Shown here: in pieces, positions 20,164-35,200 of the stretch
Numbering within the stretch: position 1 is the first letter of the stretch
How the letters are laid out: each line of letters starts with the position of its first letter
Assembly (NCBI GenBank): GCA_031411135.1
Contig: JANOAN010000007.1
Coordinates: forward strand, 4,214 to 68,213
DNA length: 64,000 bases
From: a bacterium
Lineage (GTDB): Bacteria > Patescibacteriota > Minisyncoccia > Phycocordibacterales > CAIZLB01
Direction: 5' to 3'
The notes under the pieces: generated by a model
What the model saw: the letters and a program-made list of their open reading frames with translations, nothing else
Told to the model about the DNA's origin: nothing
Database searches by the model: none
Program-made: the position numbers and the translations under genes

Positions 20164-20232
20164 GGGGTAAATAGTAGCAATTATAAGGATAAATTTCCAC
20201 TAAATGAGGCTTATTTTTAGGGGTGGATTGCT

Positions 20233-20260
20233 ATTGACAATTTGCTATATTATGCTTTAA
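20233..20260 (+). promoter_or_regulatory. sigma70-like promoter (TTGACA -35 with TTTAAT/TATTAT -10 candidates)
   Basis: Consensus TTGACA at 20233-20238 in the intergenic region downstream of valS and upstream of the GC-rich ORF. Confidence 0.3.
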
Positions 20261-20365
20261 TTTAATAAATCAAGTTCTTTGAATTAGTTGAGTGTGGAAA
20301 GAGGTTCGAAAGCTTGCTGCCATTCCGGCAAATGGTTTTCGACTCACAACTACACTCAACAATCC

Positions 20366-20800
20366 ATGAAACTCTATATTCGCAATACCTCTAATCCGCT
20401 GCTTCCCACGGCAATCCAGACTGTGAAGGAAAACGCTAGAAAAGCCGCCAACCACTTCGGATTTAAAGGGCAAGTGGTCAGCACGTGGTCTGCTGTTCTT
20501 TACGATCGTCGTGGAGCAGCAGGCGCGATCCTGGGAGAAACACTAGAAGATGGCCTCCTCGAAGCTATCATATACCTTGGCGAAACCGCTCTTCTTTGTC
20601 CACCTTATGAAGACAAGGACTCCGATGGGTTGTTCTCTCAGTCGCAGTGGGAGCACACAGCGGAACACCTCATTGGCTTCATCAAGTTGGTATTTGCGAA
20701 GGATGGCAGTGTCACTATTACCGCCTTCAAAACTGCCACTAAGGGACTTTTCACCTCGCCGACGCCAGACCAAGAGCTCCAGGTGGCACTCAACCCCTAA
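20366..20800 (+). CDS. hypothetical protein, markedly GC-rich relative to neighbours (possibly horizontally acquired)
   Basis: The ORF opens at 20288; Met at 20366 (MKLYIRN…) is the likely start. About 50% GC, with long overlapping ORFs on both strands typical of GC-rich DNA. Followed by a terminator. Confidence 0.4.
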   Translation: MKLYIRNTSNPLLPTAIQTVKENARKAANHFGFKGQVVSTWSAVLYDRRGAAGAILGETLEDGLLEAIIYLGETALLCPPYEDKDSDGLFSQSQWEHTAEHLIGFIKLVFAKDGSVTITAFKTATKGLFTSPTPDQELQVALNP

Positions 20801-20840
20801 GCGGGCGGAAATAACCCGGTGACAGTCCTTAGTCACTATT

Positions 20841-20879
20841 GAGCGCACGACCTTCGCAGGTTGTGCGCTCTTTCTTTTA
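20841..20879 (+). terminator. intrinsic terminator
   Basis: gagcgcac-gaccttcgcaggtt-gtgcgctc followed by tttctttt. Confidence 0.55.
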
Positions 20880-24163: not shown

Positions 24164-24366
24164 AGGGAAAGTATAGCAGGTATGTGTATTATATGCGGTG
24201 ACCCTTCAGCAGATAGAACCTTTTGGTTCCTTGCAGGGTAGGGTTATTTTTAATGTTTATATATTAACATAACGACCCTTCTCGTGCGTAGGTGATACAT
24301 CATATATTTGCTATAATATGTATATGTGGTATAATATAGGTCGTTATAAGCTCTTTAAATTTCGTG

Positions 24367-24421
24367 TATCGCCATAGCTAAAAGGTACTTACTATATAGG
24401 TATTTTCTAGCTATGGCGATA
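24367..24421. promoter_or_regulatory. 13-bp perfect inverted repeat (operator-like) in a divergent AT-rich promoter region
   Basis: tatcgccatagct (24367-24379) and agctatggcgata (24409-24421) flank a 29-nt spacer. Two TATAAT boxes lie immediately upstream (24310-24350). Confidence 0.35.
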
Positions 24422-24467
24422 AGGTAGCCCGCTAGCACTTGATAGGAAACAACACACCAGTTAATAC

Positions 24468-24656
24468 ATGAATAACGATAAAAATGATAAACCGAAGGAA
24501 GTATGTGTAACTCCACCGGTAGAGAAAAATCAGGATGAGCCTGGTTGGGAGAGCGAAGTCGCTAGGCTTCGAATAGACAGGCCGATGCTTATCGTCTCAA
24601 TGACACTTGGTGAATACAGAAGAAGATACAGGGTGAAGCCCCATACTTACTGCTAG
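24468..24656 (+). CDS. small hypothetical protein (62 aa)
   Basis: ORF downstream of the TATAAT boxes; a terminator follows. Confidence 0.3.
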   Translation: MNNDKNDKPKEVCVTPPVEKNQDEPGWESEVARLRIDRPMLIVSMTLGEYRRRYRVKPHTYC

Positions 24657-24764
24657 TGATTCAAGGCTGAGAGTACGAGATAATATTTGAAATTTAGTTA
24701 GATAATATTTTGGTGTTAAGCAATACACCGAAGACAAAATAGAAATTTTTCCAAAAGTTTCTAC

Positions 24765-24795
24765 ATCCCCGCCGCAACGGGGATTTTGTATTTTA
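24765..24795 (+). terminator. intrinsic terminator
   Basis: atccccg-ccgcaa-cggggat followed by tttgtatttt. Confidence 0.45.
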
Positions 24796-25062
24796 AGGAT
24801 ACAGATGTTGGCTGTTGAAGGTGACCCCATTGCGTGGCTTTCAGAACTTACTAAACAGAGAGATTATATCAAAAGTAGCATTCAAAGTATTTATTTATTC
24901 TCAAACACAGTACACAATTAAGAGTTTTTTAATATAACTCAAAAGCTTGGGAAATGTTTAGAGGTCCTCGTTCGGTGATAAATAAACAGAAAACCCACCA
25001 TCTCGCGACAGAGGGTTTCTGTGTTGAGGTTGGTGGGTTGGCTTGACCTTGAAGTGTTGCTT

Positions 25063-25866
25063 TCAAGAGCGTTTGACGATTGCATATGTCACGTTGTAAA
25101 CGTGAATGTATTCGTCAGGATCGACAATCAATACCTTGTATTTCTCAAGGCAGACGTCGCGATAAAAACGCAAGATCTGCAACTTGGCAGCTTCAAAGTC
25201 TGGCAGTAACTCCTTCTTGGCACGCAAACGGTCCCAGATGTTGACGAAGAATCCATATCCGTCTTTATACCTACTCGCTACGAGGGGGTGTTCATCAAGA
25301 ACCGCATTTAGTGCTTCTGTGGAGAAGATGAAGGGGCAATTCGTTTTACCTTCAAGTCGTGCTAGGAATTGCTCCGCCTCATTTACGAGGGCGGAAAACA
25401 CAGGTCCGGGAACAAAGTGATCTTGAAGTAAGAAGATGCCGCCGGGTTTTAACACCCGAAGAGTCTCATTGATGGCTTGAAGCCAATGTTCACGAGGCAG
25501 GTTGTTGAAACCATACCTGCAAATAGCGACGTCAATACTTTCCGACGAGACTTCCTGCATATTCGTCACATCTGCACAGATGGTCCGAGTCTTAGCATCA
25601 GATTGGATACTACTCAGAATCTGTGCCGAGGCGTCGACAAAGGTCATCTCTGATTCCAAGCCGACTGTTCCGAGATGAAATTGTATTGCTTTTCCTGCAA
25701 GACCTGTACCACAGCACAAATCCAGCACTTTGACGGGGTTTGGTAAGTGTAATCCACGCTCTACTCGATGAAAATCGAGCAGAGCTGAAGCATATCGTTC
25801 GGATTTTGAATCCTCAGTGAATGCTCCAAATGTTTGTAAGTAGCTTTTAGGCCATTGTTCGGGCAT
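25063..25866 (-). CDS. class I SAM-dependent methyltransferase (small-molecule/RNA MTase-like, not an obvious DNA MTase)
   Basis: VLDLCCGTGLAGKAI motif I; LKPGGIFLL post-II motif; no (D/N)PP(Y/F) motif seen; stop codon is TGA. Confidence 0.7.
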   Translation of the reverse strand: MPEQWPKSYLQTFGAFTEDSKSERYASALLDFHRVERGLHLPNPVKVLDLCCGTGLAGKAIQFHLGTVGLESEMTFVDASAQILSSIQSDAKTRTICADVTNMQEVSSESIDVAICRYGFNNLPREHWLQAINETLRVLKPGGIFLLQDHFVPGPVFSALVNEAEQFLARLEGKTNCPFIFSTEALNAVLDEHPLVASRYKDGYGFFVNIWDRLRAKKELLPDFEAAKLQILRFYRDVCLEKYKVLIVDPDEYIHVYNVTYAIVKRS

Positions 25867-26045
25867 ATGAATCTCCAGTTGATTGTTGTGAAAAGAGCGG
25901 TTGTAGAAAACTACAAATCACACGATACCATACAGTATGCAATTTGTCTATAGATGTGAACCAGAGTGTACATTATTCGAATACTTCACCCAACTACGTA
26001 TTTCACCCTTACAAATGAGGAACTTGGCTAAGTGTTCAGAGGTCT

Positions 26046-29000
26046 TCAATTGGTAGATCTACTCTTTGTTTTTTTCATCCTTTCTAGTGTTTCCAGTATG
26101 GGTGGGTTACTTACTCCATCGGGGATCATGGGATCAGTATCTTCAGGTCTGAGACCCATCACTTCAGGATCCATTAGCCCTATTTCCCATGCATTTTTGT
26201 GTATGAAGGTTTTTTTAACAATACCGTGATTAAAAAATATCTTTGGGGGAAACGATTGCTTATCCCTAATGAAAGATGGTGCAATGAGATAGAAGCCCCA
26301 TTGTTTAAAGCTCTCTATAAAGCCATTCAGGTTATTCAACGATTGTGGGGTCATCGTGTGCGTTCTTCCAGCATTCAACACAAGCTTACCTTTTGAATCT
26401 TTAGGATCACCAAGGTTTGTCGATATCACAAACTTATACCAGAGCGGGTTTGTCTTAGAAAAGCCCATGATTGTTGCCACCCGCATAACATCTTTCTTGT
26501 CCTCTCTACCAAGAAGATCTTTCCAATTCCTAAAAATTGCCTTTGCCTTATCCTCATTAGTAAACATTACAGCAAGTACTGGAGGTTGATCTGGCATAAC
26601 AAGGTAAGCGATGCCCTCCCATCCAGCTTCATCCCAAAGATGCCCCTCGATAATTGAGATATTTTCCATCTGATCATGACGTACAGCCTTTCTATCTTTA
26701 TCATCTTTATCGTCCTGTTTATCTGGATCGTCCCTCAATTGCTTCAGCAGTTCGTGCTTTACCTTGCCAGCTTCAGCTTCGTCATATTCATACTTTTTGT
26801 TTTCATCTGAAATCCATTCTCTGATATCTCTTTTTGGCTTATATCCCAAAACATTACCCTGAACCACCAGCGGTGATGAGAATGTAAACGCTCGCACACT
26901 AACCTCTTCATCTCGGAATAGTTTTTCAAGATCCGTATCTGCATTTCTGAATGAAATTGAGTGACCGATAATATTGACCACCGCACTAAACACATCCTTG
27001 TAGAGGCTTTCCTGCTCAGAACGCTTTAGAGAATGAGGGTTAAAATCTCCACAAGCTATATCAAATGCAATAGCTCCATCTTTTTTCACCTCATGGGAAA
27101 CCTTAACACCTAAAGTATCATCGTTGGTGATTGTGATATTCACGATACCATTGTTTCCGTGCGAATCCACCTCTACAGTTGTTGCCAAAAAACCTTCAAG
27201 AGATGCGAGGATGTATTCTCCTATTTCAATGTTAGGGCTACAGTTTTTTGTTTTAATAATAAAGGTTGTGCCTAAAATAACAGACTTAAGCTCAACTTCA
27301 TCACCCTTATAGAAAGCTGGTACATCTGGTAACTGAGCTTGGCTCGGCTGTGTAAAATGAGAGTCAAAATATTCATCAAGTTCTTCGTCGTTCATTTTTT
27401 CTAACAAAACTTGAGGTAAGGCTTTCTTTCCCCCTAATCGGTATATCAATGCGTGTGCAGCGAGATCTAGATCCATACTCATTAGGGTGTCTGGCAGAAG
27501 CTCCAAGGATGGCAAAACCTCATCAGGAGTTTTAATCAACAACAATCCCAACTGAGCACCATAGAACATGTCATCATGCAGAAGTTTTTCCGCCTCTTCA
27601 CTGGATTTAATGTAGTTAACATTCATCATATGGTTCAACTTGTGCCACTCCAGTGAATAACCCACACGTCCCAAGCGAAGTTCCAACAGACGCAAATGAC
27701 CATAAGATAGCAATTGAAGCTTGGTCACTTCACTGTGCTTATGAAAATCCATAGTCGCATAAGAAGCGGCATGTAACATCGCACTCCTTGCAGCCCAAAG
27801 TAGACCGACCTGCTCATACGCACAGGACAGCTGGGCAAGAGCAATTATTAAACCATCTCGTACCTCATCTTTGTAAAGCGGAACAAGAGATCTTCCTAGG
27901 CAATCAATCGCCTTGTAGTATCGCTTACCCTCAACATGCTGTGCGGCTCGATTTAACAGCACCATTGCAGACTCCGTAGTGCTTTTTCTTTCTGACATTA
28001 CTTCAAGCATTTTGTCTTGAAGCTTTTCAAAGCTAGGCACACCGCTGTAAAAATCATTCATCTCGCTGGTCATTTTGTAGAGCGTGTCCAGTGAGAATCC
28101 GAGAAGACCTTTGGAACGCTCAACTATCTGGAAAAGGTTATTGAAGATTACATCCATTGCCGCCTTGTCATCTCTTGATTCAGGCAGCACTAAAATATTT
28201 AGCAACAACTCAGCATGTAGGGCTGCGCTTGGTTTTGATTCATCGTCTTTAAAGGCTTCGAGTCTTCCTTGCACGGTCTTTTTCTTTTCATCTGCATACA
28301 CTGGATCAACCTTGTCACTAATAACGGACAAGGTCTTTAAAACACTCGCAAGATTACCCAACCTCTCCACCTCAAAAAGATTTGCAGAGTCTTTTGCCAA
28401 GGACTCTATCTCTTCATAGTTGCCGATAAGTGCATCAAAGTCGTCATACCAAAAATACAATGTCCACACTTCATGATATCTGGCATTAAAATACTGTTCA
28501 GAAGTTCCGTATTTCTGAGCAAGCCTCTTTGCACGAGCGAACAAACCATCCACATCCGTTTTAACCTTGTTCATTTCAGCACCGCACAATGCTGAAGACA
28601 GTGCATCATCGACGATTGCAAGATTCACTCTATCTTCCTGTACCGCCTGATCTATATCCTTATTCAAAGCCTCAAATGTTCTTTGTCGCTTCGTATCTTT
28701 AGGTCCTGTGCTGACGACCTCTTTATAAGAATCTCCCATCTTCAATTCAACAATTGCGAGATTCTCTCTCTTATTTGCAAAGATTTTATCAATTATCCAT
28801 GTTCGATCATGTATCGTTACTAGAATCCCGTATTGTTTAGTCAGCTCGTCTTCGACTTTTGCACGCTGATCTGCCTTAATAAACCGACTTGTCACAAAGA
28901 ATACTTTTGTATAACCCCTGTCCGTTCCAATCATCTTTTTAACGTCACCCTCTACCTTCGTTTTCCATTTGACTGTGGTGCTGAAAGCGAACCCTCACCG

Positions 29001-29324
29001 TTCAGTAGAAGTTTTTTCGACTCCAAAATAATAAGTATCTTTGATTGCCTCTGACACTGGCGTAGTTTCTGTGTCGACCTTGCCATCACCACCACCTACT
29101 GGACCAGTTTGAGGTCTTAGGTTCGGCTGAATCTCATGTTCACAAAGCTTTCGAGCAAACTCTTCAAAATCATATTCCTGCTTTCTTGTAGAGAGAGTGT
29201 CCAAGTGATACTCCAATTTCAGACTATCAAGCAGAGGTTCTTTGACCATTCGAGTGTCAGAAAAGCTACCGGGGCGGCGTTGCTGCATAAAGCTCTTTGG
29301 AGAAAAGTTTGAGTCCTCTTTCAT
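26046..29324 (-). CDS. large (~1090-codon) protein with N-terminal Mrr-type PD-(D/E)xK restriction-endonuclease-like domain, interrupted by a single in-frame TGA at 28995-28997
   Basis: The 109-aa ORF (28995-29324) and the 962-aa ORF (26046-28934) share one frame and are separated only by TGA. The Mrr_cat-like motif spans the junction (…FEEFARKLCEHEI…GPVGGGDGKVD…YYFGVEKTSTER*…KVFFVTSRFIKADQRAKVEDE…ILVTIHDRTWIIDKI). The remainder is a helical (TPR-like) region followed by beta-rich domains with no recognisable family. Confidence 0.6.
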
Positions 29325-29599
29325 ATTGCTATTTTACCATTTATATGAGGTTTTTTTAAGCTGATTTTGAGCCACATTAATGCTATAATATTTTCGTTGA
29401 CCCACATAGATTCCCCGACTCTTGCACAGGAGTGTTTTCGTCTAGCTTGCGGATACTGACGGGTAGTTAAGCTGCCACAAGCCAGACCGCCTTTGTGCGA
29501 TTTGGGGAATAGTGGGTCAACCAGTTTGGCTACCCATCTGTATAAATCTATAGTTGGGACCCCTCTCTGATTATTAAATAGTGTTGACCTATTTAAATC

Positions 29600-30031
29600 A
29601 TGAAAAAATACTACGGCGTTTTAATCGCATTGTTGCCATTCATTACTGGCACATATAAAAGTTTGGGTAATTGGTCCAGTTCAGAGGCTATCGGATACAA
29701 CGTATTCAATCTGGCTCTGATCGGTTTCGGTATTTATTATTTCGCAAAGCATTGGTCCGAGAAGAAAGAATCCCTCGAGCTTGCTCAATACGACATTGCT
29801 GTGTTCAAGGCATCTGCTTATATTAAGGAACTTTCGGAGGACACCAAGGAAAATGTAACCGTGAAGCGAGTCGCTATGAACGAGATCGGAAACCTTGTGG
29901 ATCTGTTCAGAAAAAACAGGAGCAAGAGCTGGAAGAGCCAGAAAGATATTAATGAGGTTACCAAGTCGTTAAATGACCTCGTAGAGAGCAACAAGGAGCT
30001 TGTAAAGCAGTCTCGGAATCTCGATATCTAG
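29600..30031 (+). CDS. hypothetical membrane protein with C-terminal coiled coil (143 aa)
   Basis: Two N-terminal TM helices; charged helical tail. Confidence 0.45.
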   Translation: MKKYYGVLIALLPFITGTYKSLGNWSSSEAIGYNVFNLALIGFGIYYFAKHWSEKKESLELAQYDIAVFKASAYIKELSEDTKENVTVKRVAMNEIGNLVDLFRKNRSKSWKSQKDINEVTKSLNDLVESNKELVKQSRNLDI

Positions 30032-30059
30032 CCAGTTCATTTTCGTGAACAATTCCCAG

Positions 30060-30224
30060 TTATTTCCCTGTATTAACAGGGAATGTCTTCCACTGTTATT
30101 TCACAGTATTAACTGTGATGTCGCCGCTGTTATTCCGCATTATTAACAGCAGAGCCTGTAGCAGTTTTCTAGCAGTATTAACAGCTATGGACCAGCGTTT
30201 TTCTAGCGTTATTTAACGTCGCTA
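30060..30224 (+). repeat. iteron-like array: five ~22-26-bp degenerate direct repeats at 33-36-bp spacing, each with an internal dyad around TATTAAC
   Basis: ttatttccctgtattaacaggg (30060); ttatttcacagtattaactgtg (30096); gttattccgcattattaacagc (30129); ttttctagcagtattaacagcta (30165); ttttctagcgttatttaacgtcgcta (30198). Confidence 0.65.
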
Positions 30225-30265
30225 AGGGGGTTTATAAGCAACCATTAATCTGCTACATTTTAGCC

Positions 30266-31132
30266 ATGGGAGGAAGCAAACCTTATGGACCAAGATTCAC
30301 AATTTTGGATAAAGCAAGACTTCTTGATAACAAGAAAGTAAGACCTATTGATAGATCCGATAGGGCTTTTATTGATAATGGAAAGCTTGAGGTGTTTTGG
30401 TCCATTAACAGATTCCGTAACGAGTTCATTAAAAAGGCAGAAGACACTCGAAAAGTTTTAGGTATTGAGGTTCTCGATCCTAAAGAAGATGTTTTGATGA
30501 CCAAACTCGGTCACAAAGGTCGTCTATTTGTTCCAAAAAGGCTCTACGTCGGCGTGAACTCCTCATTCCTGAGTAAGTATCCGAAAACCGCTGAAAACCT
30601 TAGAAAATTGATATATTCGAATGTTTTAGTGCCGCTCAACTGGTCCTACAACTTCTATCCTTTTGTTGAGTATTACATTTTATATGGAAAAAAGTCCCCT
30701 GTGGTATTACAACCTAATCCAATGCAGTTTCAGCTAATCATGAAATATCATCGGGAGCTTGGTAGAAATACGTATACAAAATCCGATATCGCATTTTTGA
30801 AACAACAGGCTGTTATTGAGCGATCAGAAAATCCGAAACGTATCAGAGAAATTGAAACCATTGCTTTAGCAGTAGATAAACTACCCAAACTAAAAAATAC
30901 TGACCGACGACCAAAAAACTTAGCACTAAAGACTGCTACTTTTAAGATATTTGAAAAAATACCTGTAAATGCGAAACCTGCAGAAATAAAGCAGTTTATG
31001 GAAGACAATTTATACAACATCATCGATGAATACAGAGAGGATTACAACCCTGATGAAGATGAGGAAAAAGTACTGCTCGCAAATGTGAAAAGGCTCTACA
31101 AAGAGTATCTAAAACTTATCCCCATGAATTGA
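30266..31132 (+). CDS. hypothetical protein (288 aa); candidate replication initiator or iteron-binding regulator
   Basis: Begins 40 bp downstream of the iteron array. Basic and charged; no recognised motif. Confidence 0.45.
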   Translation: MGGSKPYGPRFTILDKARLLDNKKVRPIDRSDRAFIDNGKLEVFWSINRFRNEFIKKAEDTRKVLGIEVLDPKEDVLMTKLGHKGRLFVPKRLYVGVNSSFLSKYPKTAENLRKLIYSNVLVPLNWSYNFYPFVEYYILYGKKSPVVLQPNPMQFQLIMKYHRELGRNTYTKSDIAFLKQQAVIERSENPKRIREIETIALAVDKLPKLKNTDRRPKNLALKTATFKIFEKIPVNAKPAEIKQFMEDNLYNIIDEYREDYNPDEDEEKVLLANVKRLYKEYLKLIPMN

Positions 31133-31702
31133 TGCTTTTCTTACAATTAACTTCAGGGGTGTTTTTGGCGAGACCTTATACTCAATATTGAGATAAGGTT
31201 TTTCTTTATCTCACAATTACTGGGAAGTAAAAAAGACGTATCAATTTCCTCCCAGTAGTTGATATGTCTTTTTTGCTAAAGAGACACGGGAACAATATTC
31301 GGGTAACGGCAACCTATAAGGCCGCCCTGATGATCATAAAAACAGAAGAACAATCACATTGTTATAGGTTGAGGTCGCAGTGGACGAGGCGACCAAAGAC
31401 TAAAGAGTAATGAGTGTCTGGGGTATCACGAACAACCGCCACAGACATCGCACATAACCTCATTACAAGGGTACACCCGCTCCGTTGTACGTAAGAAACT
31501 ATGGTTGAGATTAATGCGAATACTATCTCAATTTTCGATTCGGATTCACACTGTGGCTCCATACCGAAATAGTAAATCAATGTGGTTAGCCTAGCATTTT
31601 TTGTGCCGGGCTTGTTCTCCTGTTCACCACCCGAAATAGTTAGATAAAAATACGTATGCTTTTCAATAAAAAGGTCGGTAATAAATATAGGCAATTGCGA
31701 TA

Positions 31703-31918
31703 ATGCAGACACTACACAATAAAAACGAACAAGGTACACTGATTGAGTACGGACGACGTGCCCAAGAGTCTTTGTGTAGTAATGCACTTTCTAGAGAAAC
31801 ACTTGTTGCAATTGAAGAACTTGGTGAAATATTAAAAAATATTCATGCTAGATTAGCGTCAGAAGGCTATGAAATCATAGATGGTTGCATACGTAAAAAG
31901 ATGCAGAAACGAGTATGA
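31703..31918 (+). CDS. small protein (71 aa) translationally coupled to the recombinase gene (RDF/accessory candidate)
   Basis: Its stop overlaps the recombinase start in an ATGA arrangement (31915-31918). Confidence 0.4.
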   Translation: MQTLHNKNEQGTLIEYGRRAQESLCSNALSRETLVAIEELGEILKNIHARLASEGYEIIDGCIRKKMQKRV

Positions 31919-33636
31919 AAAAATCAAGTATAAAAACTGAAAAAGAAATCGTAGAAGAAATACTCAAGGGAACTTTCCGTGAGTTTTATTTGATATACAA
32001 CAGAAGAAGCATGGATGAGGCGGAAAGCCAAAAGAACTCCATTTCATACCAAAAAGCAGAAAATACAAAGTTTGCTTTCAGAGAAAGGCTTTCTGTTGCT
32101 CAATTTACAATCAAGGGATTTTTGGCGGACGGTATCATTTCCGAAAGTCACTCTGGTTTTACTGAGGATGACGATGTAGTGATCACAGAAGAAGGTATTG
32201 TTCAATACAGGATTGATCGACCAAAGTTTCTACGAATGCTTCAGTTTGTAAGCCAAGGATACTTCAAAGGTGTTATTTGCCTTTGTTGGGACCGTATCAG
32301 TAGGAATAAGGGTGACGACACCGTTATTCGCAAACTTATGCGTAAAGGTGTTGATTTTCGTTTTGCTTATGCAGAGTATGAAAAGTCTAGTTCTGGTGCT
32401 TTACATATGGACATTGACGGTATGTTCTCTCAACACCACTCACGTGTTACTAGTGAGAAAGTCACTATATCTACACGTAACTCGAGGGAAAAAGGTATTT
32501 GTACTTACCGTGCTCCTATTGGTTATCTCAACGAGGGAAAGATGGAAGAAAAACCTCTGGATCCATTTCGTGCACCTGTAATCAAGCAAATGTATGAGTA
32601 CTATGCGACAGGTGACTGGAGTTTGTCAGACCTAGCTCGTTACGCAAATGAGCAGGGCTTTACGACTGTACCAATGCGACGAAGACGAACGAAAGAAGAA
32701 ATGCTTGCCGAAGAAGATGAGTTTGATGAAATTGAAAAGACTTCACGTCCCATAAATGAAAACCATATCAGCAGAATACTCACAAACCCTTTCTATACTG
32801 GGAAAGTCCTCAATTCAGAGGGTAAATACATACCGAGTAATAGCCATCAAGCTATTGTAACCAAAAAGCTATTCGAGGATGTGCAGGCTGTGCTCAAAAA
32901 GAAAAAAGTGATCGTTCATTATACCGAAAAATTGGACCAACCACTCCGAGGTATCGTACGTTGTGAACATTGTGGACGTGTATACACCCCTTACACAAAG
33001 AAAGGTATCCAATACTACAATTCTCGATGCGTAAATGGATGCTCGAACACACTTAAGAACTTTAACTTTGATTTTATTGATAAGAAGATAGGTGATCTTA
33101 TCACTGGCTTACATTTTACTGATGAAGAAATCGAGCAGATGGATGCTCGGGCAGGTACTGAGATTGCTTTGCTCGAAGAAAGACGGCACAAGACACTGGA
33201 CCAAGTTGAGAGAAAGAAGAAAAAGATACGTGAGGATCTTGCGTATCTACGTTCAAACAAAATACCTCTTTTGAAATCGGGTGTATACACTCCAGAAGGT
33301 TATGTTGCTGAAGAAACCAAGCTTGATAGTGAACTTTCAGAACTAAAAAATAGTGAAGATGTTTCGGACATCGCAATGCACGAAACTATGAAAGACGTTC
33401 AAAAACTTTCAGAACTCGTTAAAAACGTTGCAGCATATTATCAATTCGCCAAACCACACGAAAAAGAGCAGATTGTTCGTGTAATCTTTTCAGAACTTTC
33501 AATTTCCCAAAATACGTTGCAATTTAAGTGTAAAAAAGGATTTGAGTGCTTCGAGAATCGCTTTCTTGCTATTTGTGACCCCACAGAGAATCGAACTCTG
33601 ATTACTGCCTTGAAAAGGCAATGTCCTAACCGTTAG
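31915..33636 (+). CDS. large serine recombinase (resolvase catalytic domain + recombinase domain + zinc ribbon + coiled coil)
   Basis: 573 aa; N-terminal YLIYNRRSMDEAESQ (serine-recombinase R-x-S…Q catalytic region); zinc ribbon CEHCGRVYTPY…CVNGC; long C-terminal coiled coil. Confidence 0.8.
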   Translation: MKKSSIKTEKEIVEEILKGTFREFYLIYNRRSMDEAESQKNSISYQKAENTKFAFRERLSVAQFTIKGFLADGIISESHSGFTEDDDVVITEEGIVQYRIDRPKFLRMLQFVSQGYFKGVICLCWDRISRNKGDDTVIRKLMRKGVDFRFAYAEYEKSSSGALHMDIDGMFSQHHSRVTSEKVTISTRNSREKGICTYRAPIGYLNEGKMEEKPLDPFRAPVIKQMYEYYATGDWSLSDLARYANEQGFTTVPMRRRRTKEEMLAEEDEFDEIEKTSRPINENHISRILTNPFYTGKVLNSEGKYIPSNSHQAIVTKKLFEDVQAVLKKKKVIVHYTEKLDQPLRGIVRCEHCGRVYTPYTKKGIQYYNSRCVNGCSNTLKNFNFDFIDKKIGDLITGLHFTDEEIEQMDARAGTEIALLEERRHKTLDQVERKKKKIREDLAYLRSNKIPLLKSGVYTPEGYVAEETKLDSELSELKNSEDVSDIAMHETMKDVQKLSELVKNVAAYYQFAKPHEKEQIVRVIFSELSISQNTLQFKCKKGFECFENRFLAICDPTENRTLITALKRQCPNR

Positions 33637-33712
33637 ACGATGGGGCCATATTTGTCCCAAAGAATATAACATTTTTTTGGAAAAAGGCAAAAAAGAGGTA
33701 TATAATTAGCAT

Positions 33713-34192
33713 ATGAAAAACACCACACTACTTTTCCTAATTAAAAAAACAGATAACAAAATCAGTGACATTTGCCTTGCTATGAAGAAGCGCGGATTCG
33801 GGGCAGGTCGTTGGAATGGAGTCGGTGGAAAGCTTTCAGATGGTGAATCGATCGAAGATGCAACGAAGAGGGAAACCAAAGAGGAAATTGGTGTTGATAT
33901 TTCATCAATGTCCAAAGTAGCAGAGCTCGCATTTTCCTTTGCCAACAATCCTGACTGGAATCAACTTGTTCATGTTTTTACAACTACTGAATGGAGTGGA
34001 GAGCCAATTGAAAGTGAAGAGATGCGACCACAATGGTATCCTGTTACAGAAATTCCTTTTAAAGACATGTGGCCCGATGATATATTTTGGCTTCCAAAAG
34101 TCTTGAATGGGGAATTAATTAAGGCAGCGTTTACTTTTGGAGAAAAAGATGCCATTTTAGATCAGAAAGTTGAAACAGTAGAGTCTTTATAA
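33713..34192 (+). CDS. Nudix hydrolase
   Basis: Canonical Nudix box GGKLSDGESIEDATKRETKEEIGV (GX5EX7REUXEEXGU). Confidence 0.8.
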   Translation: MKNTTLLFLIKKTDNKISDICLAMKKRGFGAGRWNGVGGKLSDGESIEDATKRETKEEIGVDISSMSKVAELAFSFANNPDWNQLVHVFTTTEWSGEPIESEEMRPQWYPVTEIPFKDMWPDDIFWLPKVLNGELIKAAFTFGEKDAILDQKVETVESL

Positions 34193-34206
34193 TACTATTG
34201 CCCTAC

Positions 34207-34279
34207 GGGCGATTAGCTCAGTTGGTAGAGCGCAACATTGACGTTGTTGATGCCAGAGGTTCGAGTCCTCTATCCCCCA
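34207..34279 (+). tRNA. tRNA-Val (anticodon GAC)
   Basis: gggcgattaGCTCAGTTGGTAGAGCgcaacaTTGACGTtgttgatgccAGAGGTTCGAGTCCTCTatcccccA: cloverleaf with D-arm, anticodon loop ttGACgt and T-arm GGTTCGAGTCC. One C-C mismatch in the acceptor stem (position 4:69). Confidence 0.8.
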
Positions 34280-34285
34280 CAGATT

Positions 34286-35200
34286 TTACGCATGCAAATG
34301 ATTATATATATCCTCCAGTGCCTTAACAGCATCTCCCGCCGCAATATTATTTTGATGATACAGTCCGTCAGTGCAATCTCCAGCAGCCCAAATCCCCGGA
34401 GTTTTTGATTCCTGCGTTTTCGGATCAACAATGATTTTTCCAATTGGATCAAGTTCAACAATATCCTTTACAAAATCAGTACTTGGAATCAATCCAATTT
34501 CAACGAATATTCCTGTGACAGGAAGCTCTACTACCTGATCTCCAGTTTTATATGAAAAACTACTTACAAATTTGTCACCCTTAACCTCATGTGGAATTGC
34601 ATTTCTAATAGCTTTAACATTTGGTTTAGATAAAACTTTCTCAACTGTGACTTCATCTGCTCTAAACGTGTCACTGCGATTAACAATGGTCACGCTTTTA
34701 CAATAGGCAGCCAATTGTGCCGCACTTTCAAAAGCTGCATTTCCCCCACCTACTACTACGACATCTTGATCTTCGAATAGGGGGCCATCACAAGTGGCAC
34801 AATATGTCAGTCCCTTATTATCAAATTCTTCCGCACCGGGAACTTCTAGTTTTCTTCGGCGACTTCCTGTAGTGATCAGAATAGTTTTTGTTTCAAATGT
34901 TTCGTCTTTTACAGTGACAGAAAATCCTTTTCCATTTTTCGTGATTTTAGAAACCAGTGCACCTTCCTTTATATCTACAATGTCACCAGCATAAGCACGT
35001 AAATGTGCCTCCAAATTTTTTGAAAGTTCAGCACCAGAAATTTTCACAGTCCCAATCCAGTTTTCAATCCCTTCGGAAACTGTGCTTTGGCCTTCAAAAT
35101 TTTTCGTAATAAAAAGCGTTTTAAGTTTCTTTCTGCTAGCATAAACTCCTGCTGCTACTCCTGCTGGACCTCCTCCGATGATTGTTAAGTCGTATGTCAT
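34286..35200 (-). CDS. trxB: Thioredoxin-disulfide reductase
   Basis: N-terminal FAD motif IIGGGPAGVAAG; redox-active CATCDG; NADPH motif VVGGGNAA. Confidence 0.85.
   Translation of the reverse strand: MTYDLTIIGGGPAGVAAGVYASRKKLKTLFITKNFEGQSTVSEGIENWIGTVKISGAELSKNLEAHLRAYAGDIVDIKEGALVSKITKNGKGFSVTVKDETFETKTILITTGSRRRKLEVPGAEEFDNKGLTYCATCDGPLFEDQDVVVVGGGNAAFESAAQLAAYCKSVTIVNRSDTFRADEVTVEKVLSKPNVKAIRNAIPHEVKGDKFVSSFSYKTGDQVVELPVTGIFVEIGLIPSTDFVKDIVELDPIGKIIVDPKTQESKTPGIWAAGDCTDGLYHQNNIAAGDAVKALEDIYNHLHA

Follow-up and report, generated by a model that had tools for sequence, protein, structure and literature searches.

An integrative plasmid-like element of a Parcubacteria genome, probably inserted at a tRNA-Glu gene by a large serine recombinase with attP inside its own coding sequence

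Well-studied large serine recombinases (LSRs) mostly act on protein-coding or intergenic targets and have their attP outside the integrase open reading frame (ORF), and a tRNA target is typical of tyrosine integrases rather than of well-studied serine integrases. In the current analysis, a 64,000-nt stretch of a bacterial contig (JANOAN010000007.1, positions 4,214–68,213, assembly GCA_031411135.1; hereafter the window, whose numbering is used throughout) was examined, and an 8,745-bp element at 24830–33574 departs from these systems in targeting a tRNA 3′ end, in holding attP inside the 3′ end of its LSR ORF and in having a host from the candidate phyla radiation (CPR). This segment is very probably an integrative plasmid-like element that its LSR inserted at the 3′ end of tRNA-Glu(UUC) in a Parcubacteria/Paceibacteria genome. 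An initial annotation, made from the letters alone, had proposed an integrated element of the serine-recombinase type lying between core genes, and that proposal is borne out by empty sites in relatives, a full-length recombinase and two defined ends.

Several described systems share part of this arrangement. The succession of resolvase, recombinase and zinc-ribbon domains is the one seen in phiC31, Bxb1, TP901-1, A118 and the serine-recombinase integrative and conjugative or mobilizable elements of Firmicutes, although sequence similarity between solved LSRs and the window LSR is very low; as in serine-integrase elements and phages generally, short att sites go together with an integrase gene at one end of the element and, beside it, a small gene that possibly encodes a recombination directionality factor. 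The integrative plasmids pSAM2 and the SLP1-type actinomycete integrative and conjugative elements use tyrosine integrases and target tRNA genes (reviewed in PMC2440964). Like the window element they are small (∼9–17 kb), exist as a circle or integrated at a specific tRNA 3′ end, and keep the tRNA intact by means of a short core, whereas the window element has a serine recombinase and no recognised conjugation or replication genes. In the 'suicidal' SSV-type tyrosine integrases, which a review describes as exclusive to archaea, the att site lies within the integrase gene (PMC8371274). The likeness here is that attP is in the integrase ORF, that integration splits the gene, and that integrase and att site form a compact exchangeable module; however, the SSV-type split takes away much of the protein, while the window LSR exchanges the last 30 of 586 codons and keeps its catalytic and DNA-binding domains, and the former are archaeal tyrosine recombinases whereas the latter is a bacterial serine recombinase. 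Finally, in the integration-dependent immunity of mycobacteriophage BPs, attP lies inside the repressor gene, and integration removes a degradation tag and so acts as a switch (PMC4557955). Integrated and free forms encode different C-termini in both cases, but BPs uses a tyrosine integrase and has attP in its repressor gene, whereas in the window attP is in the gene of the serine recombinase itself. The locus would thus provide a bacterial serine-recombinase counterpart to an att site inside an integrase and to integration-dependent protein change, both known only for tyrosine-recombinase systems. Full-text searches of the literature on serine recombinases of Patescibacteria, Parcubacteria or CPR bacteria, and on an attP that falls inside the gene of a serine integrase, returned no description of the family, which is abundant and apparently undescribed in a group whose mobile elements are poorly characterised.

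The ends of the element are bracketed by a 9-bp direct repeat, GTGACCCCA, read off the sequence, with its left copy (the attL core) at 24821–24829 and its right copy (the attR core) at 33575–33583. The repeat copies the final 8 nt of tRNA-Glu and adds one further nucleotide, and the right copy falls within both the LSR ORF and the acceptor stem of the intact minus-strand tRNA-Glu(UUC) that was the integration target, attB (33575–33647; ARAGORN; Rfam RF00005, 61 bits, E 9.5e-11). This tRNA overlaps the final 62 nt of the LSR ORF. Laid out as left arm, core and right arm, attL reads GCTGTTGAAG|GTGACCCCA|TTGCGTGGCTTTCAGAACT and attR reads CTTGCTATTT|GTGACCCCA|CAGAGAATCGAAC; the attP junction rebuilt from both element ends contains CTTGCTATTTGTGACCCCATTGCGTGGCTTTCAGAACT, and the rebuilt attB junction runs through tRNA-Glu as ...CTCTGTGGGGTCACCTTCAACAGCCAACATC.... 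The host B arm (24808–24820), which reads CCTTCAACAGC in the tRNA sense, is the original 3′ flank of tRNA-Glu and is now found at the far end of the element. The P′ arm of attP (24829–24921, plus strand) is at the same time the native end of the LSR coding sequence, now separated from the rest of the gene and comprising 30 codons (IAWLSELTKQRDYIKSSIQSIYLFSNTVHN) and a stop.

Support for the left end came from related loci (designated here by L numbers). When the block was compared with the relatives' loci by blastn, the P′ arm at 24821–24870 was 98 per cent identical over 50 nt to L001 2185–2234, a site ∼7.8 kb upstream of the L001 recombinase and at the distal end of the L001 element, despite a cargo in that element that is unrelated to the cargo in the window; the same arm showed 84–95 per cent identity to sites in L087/L088 and L022. 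A P′ profile of 14 sites, the window's own included, found exactly one site in the window (24820–24890, E 4e-18). A 7-bp match, GTGACCC at 24198–24204, had been a candidate attL and was dropped, as blastn and the P′ profile both put attL at 24821. No long direct repeat brackets the block (repeat search with seed 10 and minimum 14), the true core being only 9 bp, and a second copy of either tRNA-Glu half was absent from the window with up to 3 mismatches allowed. The initial annotation had expected imperfect inverted repeats around a 2-bp crossover; the ends can indeed be defined, but they are recognised by the shared 9-bp core, to which distinct P, P′, B and B′ arms are attached, and judged by these letters strand exchange must fall within GTGACCCCA.

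These boundaries revise the extent of 24170–33700 given originally, in that the element is there but the left 650 bp of that interval (24170–24820) belong to the host, as does the whole of 24164–24820 to the left of attL. The LSR abuts attR, in agreement with the expectation that it would sit at one element end beside the att site. The element had also been described as ending near tRNA-Val, and a tRNA-Val does follow at 34207–34280, 571 bp past the LSR stop; the target, however, is the tRNA-Glu that had been missed. Its reputedly higher GC content is real but slight, at 40.6 per cent against 38.2 ± 0.7 per cent (maximum 39.8 per cent) in 152 same-size windows elsewhere in a stretch of ∼38 per cent GC overall, and the small excess is driven by a methyltransferase gene (46 per cent) and a giant gene (41.6 per cent). 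Rfam gave no match within the element. The genes that had been listed for the block are all present: the methyltransferase, the giant ORF, a 143-aa ORF, a repeat array, a 288-aa ORF, and a 71-aa ORF coupled through ATGA to the 573-aa LSR.

An unusual property of the locus is the position of attP, which lies within the final ∼90 nt of the sequence that encodes the LSR. In its integrated form the LSR gene (31915–33636, plus strand) encodes 573 aa, of which residues 1–556 are encoded by the element, with 554–556 (CDP) lying across the shared core, and residues 557–573 are antisense to tRNA-Glu. When the left side of attR (to 33579) is joined to the right side of attL, the LSR frame goes on as ...FLAICDP-IAWLSELTKQRDYIKSSIQSIYLFSNTVHN and then a stop, and this rejoined end (CDP-IAWLSEL...) matches the native tails of LSR homologues P0104, P0060, P0048, P0080 and P0087. 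Upon integration 30 native codons are therefore swapped for 17 tRNA-antisense codons, and all recognised domains of the 586-codon native protein, which lie within residues 1–556, are untouched. The CDP(I/T)AWLSEL tail was found in homologues away from any tRNA. The tRNA-antisense tail (CDPTxNRT...) is present in at least 83 of 120 clusters of homologues and the native tail in ∼11; the remainder have other junctions, some of which resemble the antisense of other tRNAs. Past WLSEL the native tails differ in sequence and yet keep a helical I..xI..L pattern, which suggests constraint on the tail as protein as well as on the DNA, and the exchanged segment is likely to be a conserved amphipathic C-terminal helix (xAWLSEL...I..xI..L).

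By this account the LSR recombines attP, at the 3′ end of its own gene, with attB, composed of the 3′ acceptor end of tRNA-Glu and its downstream flank. Integration leaves the tRNA intact and places the LSR gene convergent with it at the tRNA-proximal end of the element, while the native last 30 codons are carried 8.7 kb away to attL and 17 codons from the tRNA antisense strand replace the lost tail. Excision would again be performed by the LSR, helped by the 71-aa protein as a directionality factor, and we infer that the LSR of the integrated form can still carry out this reaction despite its foreign tail. Free circles with an undivided LSR gene are the other state of the family.

Such circles were found among metagenome contigs. 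The rebuilt attP occurs exactly over 35 nt, with two degenerate positions allowed, in four of them. One of the four, L097, is 11,834 bp long with a 127-bp terminal overlap that closes it to a circle of 11.7 kb; it is without a tRNA, its LSR is 81 per cent identical to that of the window, it has the 71-aa gene, and its cargo genes encode a protein resembling ResIII helicases as well as an N6/N4 DNA methylase. Since the exact attP stands on a circular contig, the recombination product predicted from the window's ends exists in nature. L091 is another such molecule (9,440 bp with a 141-bp terminal overlap, equal to the assembler k-mer, giving a circle of 9.3 kb) that likewise is without a tRNA and encodes a native-tail LSR (P0060). 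The excised circular form with attP is therefore present for the family, though not for this exact element.

The integrated state was seen in related contigs. Every tRNA-tail LSR ORF examined in L001–L004, L050 and the window ends inside an antisense tRNA-Glu (CUC or UUC), and the genes past that tRNA differ by locus (murE; tRNA-Ser and a glycosyltransferase; HIT and RmuC; Nudix in the window). The neighbouring TrxB gene was used to scan one genome per species, which gave 80 related CPR loci with a common order of TrxB, then tRNA-Val/Ser/Glu, then TsaD. tRNA-Glu occupies the same chromosomal neighbourhood in ∼60 related genomes, and in most of the relatives it has no adjacent LSR, for example in L074, L033, L019, L057, L012 and L059. 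The comparison for empty sites that had been suggested at the outset thus shows that the block is not syntenic, with L074, L033, L019 and L057 having the tRNA and no LSR. In the unoccupied L074 site, the 11 nt after tRNA-Glu, CCTTCAACAGC, are identical to the window flank left of 24821, and the chance probability of an exact 11-nt match at a fixed position is ∼2e-7. In L057, YdeI, which is the left neighbour of the block in the window, lies 49 bp after tRNA-Glu.

It might be argued from the same neighbourhoods that nothing was inserted, and that the block is ordinary core genome in which a recombinase with a housekeeping or invertase role has been conserved in synteny with tRNA-Glu. LSR homologues are always beside tRNA-Glu and are unusually conserved (60–88 per cent identity), even above TrxB; in L050 the same tRNA holds an LSR that is 88 per cent identical to the window's, with TrxB only 69 per cent identical. 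However, conservation above a housekeeping gene is itself a sign of horizontal spread, which the L050 comparison indicates, and the far-side genes and cargo vary between loci. Most relatives are without an LSR at tRNA-Glu, their empty sites match the window flank, and circular copies exist. As empty sites and circular forms refute it, this explanation has practically no chance of being correct. For L050 no left end was found with the P′ profile in the locus stretch examined, nor was one found for L093.

Given that an integrated element is in place, the next consideration is the enzyme. The LSR matches Pfam Resolvase (PF00239, 3.5e-11) and Recombinase (PF07508, 3.4e-15) and PHROG 95 'integrase' (7.9e-58), and a weak match to Zn_ribbon_recom (PF13408, 5e-4) scores 20.8 bits, under the 25.3-bit cut-off, while C350, C353, C372 and C376 are invariant among 12 homologues. 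A resolvase-type catalytic domain followed by a recombinase domain and then a zinc ribbon is what defines a large serine recombinase. Also invariant in the 12 homologues are R30, S32, D34, Q39, D126, R127, S129 and R130 (the DRxSR motif); S32 is presumably the nucleophile, as its surroundings (YxRxS...SIxxQ) resemble by eye the TP901-1 integrase N-terminus. The LSR family profile gave a weak match to the TP901-1 integrase catalytic domain (E 0.006), in an alignment that does not extend over the S32 region, and phmmer of the LSR against the PDB gave no match. A search at E ≤ 1e-5 gave 1,021 homologues, of which the best 120 show 60–100 per cent identity and are nearly all ∼555–606 aa long; the named ones are from Parcubacteria. 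The initial annotation had allowed that the recombinase could be a truncated or inactive remnant without definable ends, and what is observed is a full-length protein with its catalytic motifs and both ends in place.

Directly upstream is the gene for the 71-aa protein (31703–31918, plus strand), the stop of which overlaps the LSR start (ATGA), so that the two are translationally coupled. Every family member examined, circular L091 and L097 among them, has a homologue immediately 5′ of the LSR gene, and its C-terminal motif (LSxDTLxALEELGxxLxxIHxRxxxEGYEI) is conserved. It matched no family in Pfam or PHROGs, and its position makes it a candidate recombination directionality factor for excision or an accessory protein. 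Together the 71-aa gene and the LSR form an integration module, the sole part that the window element has in common with the L001–L004 loci.

The element as a whole is a mosaic of this integration module, a backbone module and a cargo slot. The backbone module (29447–31648) matches L093 9207–11386 continuously over 2.2 kb at 83 per cent nucleotide identity. It begins with a gene for a 143-aa protein with a hydrophobic N-terminus (29600–30031, plus strand), 95 per cent identical at the amino acid level to its L093/L094 counterpart and without a match in Pfam or PHROGs. There follows a hairpin-repeat array of 4–5 units of ∼35 bp (30056–30225), in which a repeat search found four copies of a ∼25-nt repeat at ∼35-bp spacing (30056–30185) and a fifth, to ∼30225, was seen by eye. 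Each unit consists of GTTATT and a short hairpin with a TATTAA loop; folded as DNA the array forms hairpins (z = −3.25), and it is kept in L093, with stems that vary between units and loci yet still pair. The 288-aa protein (30266–31132, plus strand) is all-alpha in an AlphaFold2 (AF2) model (pLDDT 86), is 72 per cent identical to the L093 copy and has only 17 homologues, none carrying a Pfam domain. It had been labelled 'Rep-like', a label that found no support in Pfam, PHROGs, PADLOC, PDB sequences or Foldseek (none at E < 1 against PDB and BFVD). An iteron replicon would combine a repeat array with a Rep protein, and here the array is present and the 288-aa protein is without a known Rep-family match. 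The module closes with a conserved non-coding part of ∼500 bp (31133–31648), also within the L093 match. From this context, the backbone module may serve to replicate or maintain the circular form, and such a role is plausible for the 288-aa protein.

The LSR that accompanies the backbone in L093 is only 21.6 per cent identical to the window's and ends inside an antisense tRNA-Ala(UGC). L093 9207–13298 and L094 join a window-type backbone to this unrelated LSR and to a different, restriction-modification-like cargo. The same backbone with an unrelated LSR in L093/L094 means, therefore, that whole integration modules have been swapped between elements. The edge of the variable cargo slot is also conserved, as a 91-nt junction at 25965–26055 that is 88 per cent identical to L093 3102–3192; between junction and backbone the slot is occupied in L093 by genes for a 541-aa protein, a ResIII helicase, an N6/N4 methylase and a helix-turn-helix protein, and in the window by the giant gene.

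Two genes make up the cargo in the window. The first encodes a 267-aa class-I S-adenosylmethionine (SAM) methyltransferase (25063–25866, minus strand; Pfam Methyltransf_25 1.9e-14, Methyltransf_11 1.2e-11) that matches PHROG 4752 'tRNA methyltransferase' (6e-9) and in part PADLOC mad2 (4e-11), and from these matches we take it to be a generic class-I SAM enzyme and not a recognisable DNA methylase. The second is the giant gene (26046–29324, minus strand). It had been listed as a giant gene and is indeed present as an ORF at 26046–28934 (minus strand), but it is really one frame of ∼1,092 codons split by an in-frame TGA at 28995–28997. The gene has been transferred widely among bacteria and archaea: the homologues listed are contiguous and 867–1,159 aa long (most ∼1,050–1,160), with 28–91 per cent identity, and come from Proteobacteria, Bacteroidota, CPR bacteria and one Methanobacteriaceae metagenome-assembled genome. 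Tryptophan stands at the position of the TGA in all seven homologues inspected (ERWGFAFS, ERWAFAIS or a close variant), and no other gene in the window hints at TGA recoding. The comparison implies either a recent pseudogene, through a TGG-to-TGA change, or an assembly error.

The product of the giant gene was modelled by AF2 (pLDDT 87) with an alpha/beta domain at the N-terminus, a long central superhelix of TPR type and further alpha/beta domains towards the C-terminus. A whole-protein Foldseek search of the PDB returned only weak TPR matches, and there was no match in Pfam (E ≤ 10, with the N-terminus rejoined), PADLOC or PDB sequences; these searches, together with PHROGs, gave no support to the 'Mrr-like' label originally attached to it. 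The N-terminal domain has an invariant GGGD...D...S...K and may be compatible with a PD-(D/E)xK fold. A defence-type role for the cargo is inferred. The closest homologue, 91 per cent identical, is in a CPR genome near gltX (L095 8001–13028), with a 226-aa gene after it and a tyrosine integrase gene beyond that. The proximity of that homologue to a tyrosine integrase shows that one cargo gene can move in the company of integrases of different kinds.

The element had been described as an integrative plasmid or as prophage-like, and of the two the former fits better. A small temperate virus would be expected to encode virion proteins, which for a non-tailed particle could be the backbone genes; most genes of the element have no recognisable function, the serine integrase is of a kind used by phages, and circles of 9–12 kb fit the sizes of small non-tailed viruses. 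However, no PHROG capsid, portal, terminase or lysis family was matched in the window element or in circular L097, the sole match of this type being a marginal 'head closure' (E 0.0025) inside a helicase. A scan of IMG/VR with the LSR alignment found no relatives, and Foldseek found no BFVD match for the 288-aa protein. In addition, a TraG/VirD4-like coupling protein in some relatives, of which L085 is one, points to conjugative biology. Since neither virion genes nor an IMG/VR relative were detected, 'integrative plasmid-like element' is the better description, and we regard a prophage as very improbable.

A further explanation is that the element was integrated in the past by the mechanism described here and is now a fixed, decaying remnant, immobile and with its LSR kept by chance or in another role. 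The nonsense codon in the large cargo gene and the detachment of the native LSR C-terminus would fit such a history, as would the decayed or LSR-less remnants at the same site in L034 and L060 and the want of junction evidence for this exact element. Yet the LSR and 71-aa ORFs are intact with all invariant residues present, the P′ arms at attL and in a related element share 98 per cent identity across 50 nt, and over 35 nt the rebuilt attP is an exact match to the attP of a circular relative. The intact ORFs of the at least 83 of 120 homologue clusters that are integrated suggest that the integrated form is the normal, functional state. Immobility is thus unlikely in our estimation, and the interpretation as an integrative plasmid-like element moved by its LSR is retained.

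Several observations nevertheless count against that interpretation, among them the L034 and L060 remnants already mentioned. The circles belong to relatives at 66–81 per cent LSR identity and not to the window element, and this exact element or strain yielded neither an empty site nor a circular form; L005, whose genome is the closest (TrxB 91 per cent identical), is uninformative, as its contig stops inside tRNA-Glu. The sequence by itself places the crossover within the 9-bp core and not at one dinucleotide. The nonsense codon of the giant gene could mean that the element is decaying, although the window derives from a metagenome-assembled genome and the TGA may be an assembly error. Finally, no replication, mobilisation or defence function has been demonstrated for any gene other than the recombinase, and the 288-aa protein is without a detectable relative of known function.

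Remnants and repeated use of the tRNA-Glu site were observed in several relatives. L060 9340–11893 contains a ∼2.1-kb island without an LSR between P′ sites and tRNA-Glu, and L034 13995–14815 is a ∼0.8-kb remnant with only C-terminal fragments of an LSR; by sequence the two resemble decayed members of this element family. Tandem elements are present in L087/L088, and P′ remnants are stacked in L001, L022 and L060. Pairs of P′-type half sites 330–920 bp apart are found in L001 (1529–1604 and 2184–2260), L022 (16528–16602 and 17450–17522), L060 (9340–9414 and 9674–9749) and L091 (5955–6029 and 6502–6566), and within circular L091 they flank a 133-aa gene. Such pairs might have been left behind by one integration after another, or they might represent a second functional site.

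The placement of an LSR 3′ end over an antisense tRNA is seen in at least three LSR lineages that are pairwise no more than 26 per cent identical: the window family at tRNA-Glu, the L088-LSR2/L018/L041 family at tRNA-Glu and the L093 family at tRNA-Ala. The second of these (569 aa; L088 11296–13039, L018 12743–14428 and L041 8700–10349) ends inside antisense tRNA-Glu, aligns with the window LSR at 26 per cent identity over only a 92-aa local match, and lies in tandem with a window-family element in L087/L088. By analogy with the integration-dependent immunity of BPs, it is possible, though rather doubtful, that the tail exchange is a built-in switch of integration state upon which these CPR lineages have converged. 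If so, it could alter the stability, activity or directionality of the recombinase, and read-through of the tRNA would give antisense control over the integrated-state enzyme. Several of the native tails of P0080, P0087, P0090, P0100 and P0048 end in -AA or -FA, much as ssrA tags do; the native tail of the window LSR ends in -VHN, so that a degradation-tag-like ending is not general. Whatever the role of the tail, the LSR family would represent a major route of gene flow, including that of restriction-modification-type and other defence-like cargo, in reduced CPR genomes, and its defined attP and conserved tRNA-Glu attB make it a candidate tool for site-specific integration in organisms for which genetic tools are scarce.

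Some features of the host flanks may also be mentioned. The spacer between YdeI and attL (24164–24820) resembles a small transcription unit, with a promoter-like site at 24308–24335 (10 of 12 matches plus TG), a hairpin at 24367–24421 (25-nt arms, 84 per cent complementary), a 62-aa ORF at 24468–24656 without a Pfam match, and a terminator-like hairpin at 24765–24784. The last was considered as a displaced terminator of tRNA-Glu and was dropped, its T-run being on the plus strand; it more likely ends the small host unit. L057 has no such spacer, in keeping with the 49 bp between its tRNA-Glu and YdeI. A gap of ∼700 bp at 20170–20870, between a LeuRS-like gene and TsaD, has 49–52 per cent GC against 38 per cent; the two genes are adjacent in L003, the ORFs in the gap have no Pfam match, and its minus strand folds better than shuffled sequences (z = −3.9, from only 20 shuffles). 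Rfam found nothing in the spacer (24.15–25.07 kb) or in this GC-rich gap (20.1–21.0 kb), and the gap may harbour a structured RNA that has escaped annotation, or else a small gene that was acquired. To the right of the element, the tRNA-Glu/Nudix/tRNA-Val segment (33575–35200) is inverted relative to TrxB/TsaD in L065, L024 and L003 as compared with the window, L050 and L005, an arrangement of sequences that suggests repeated inversions around this cluster.

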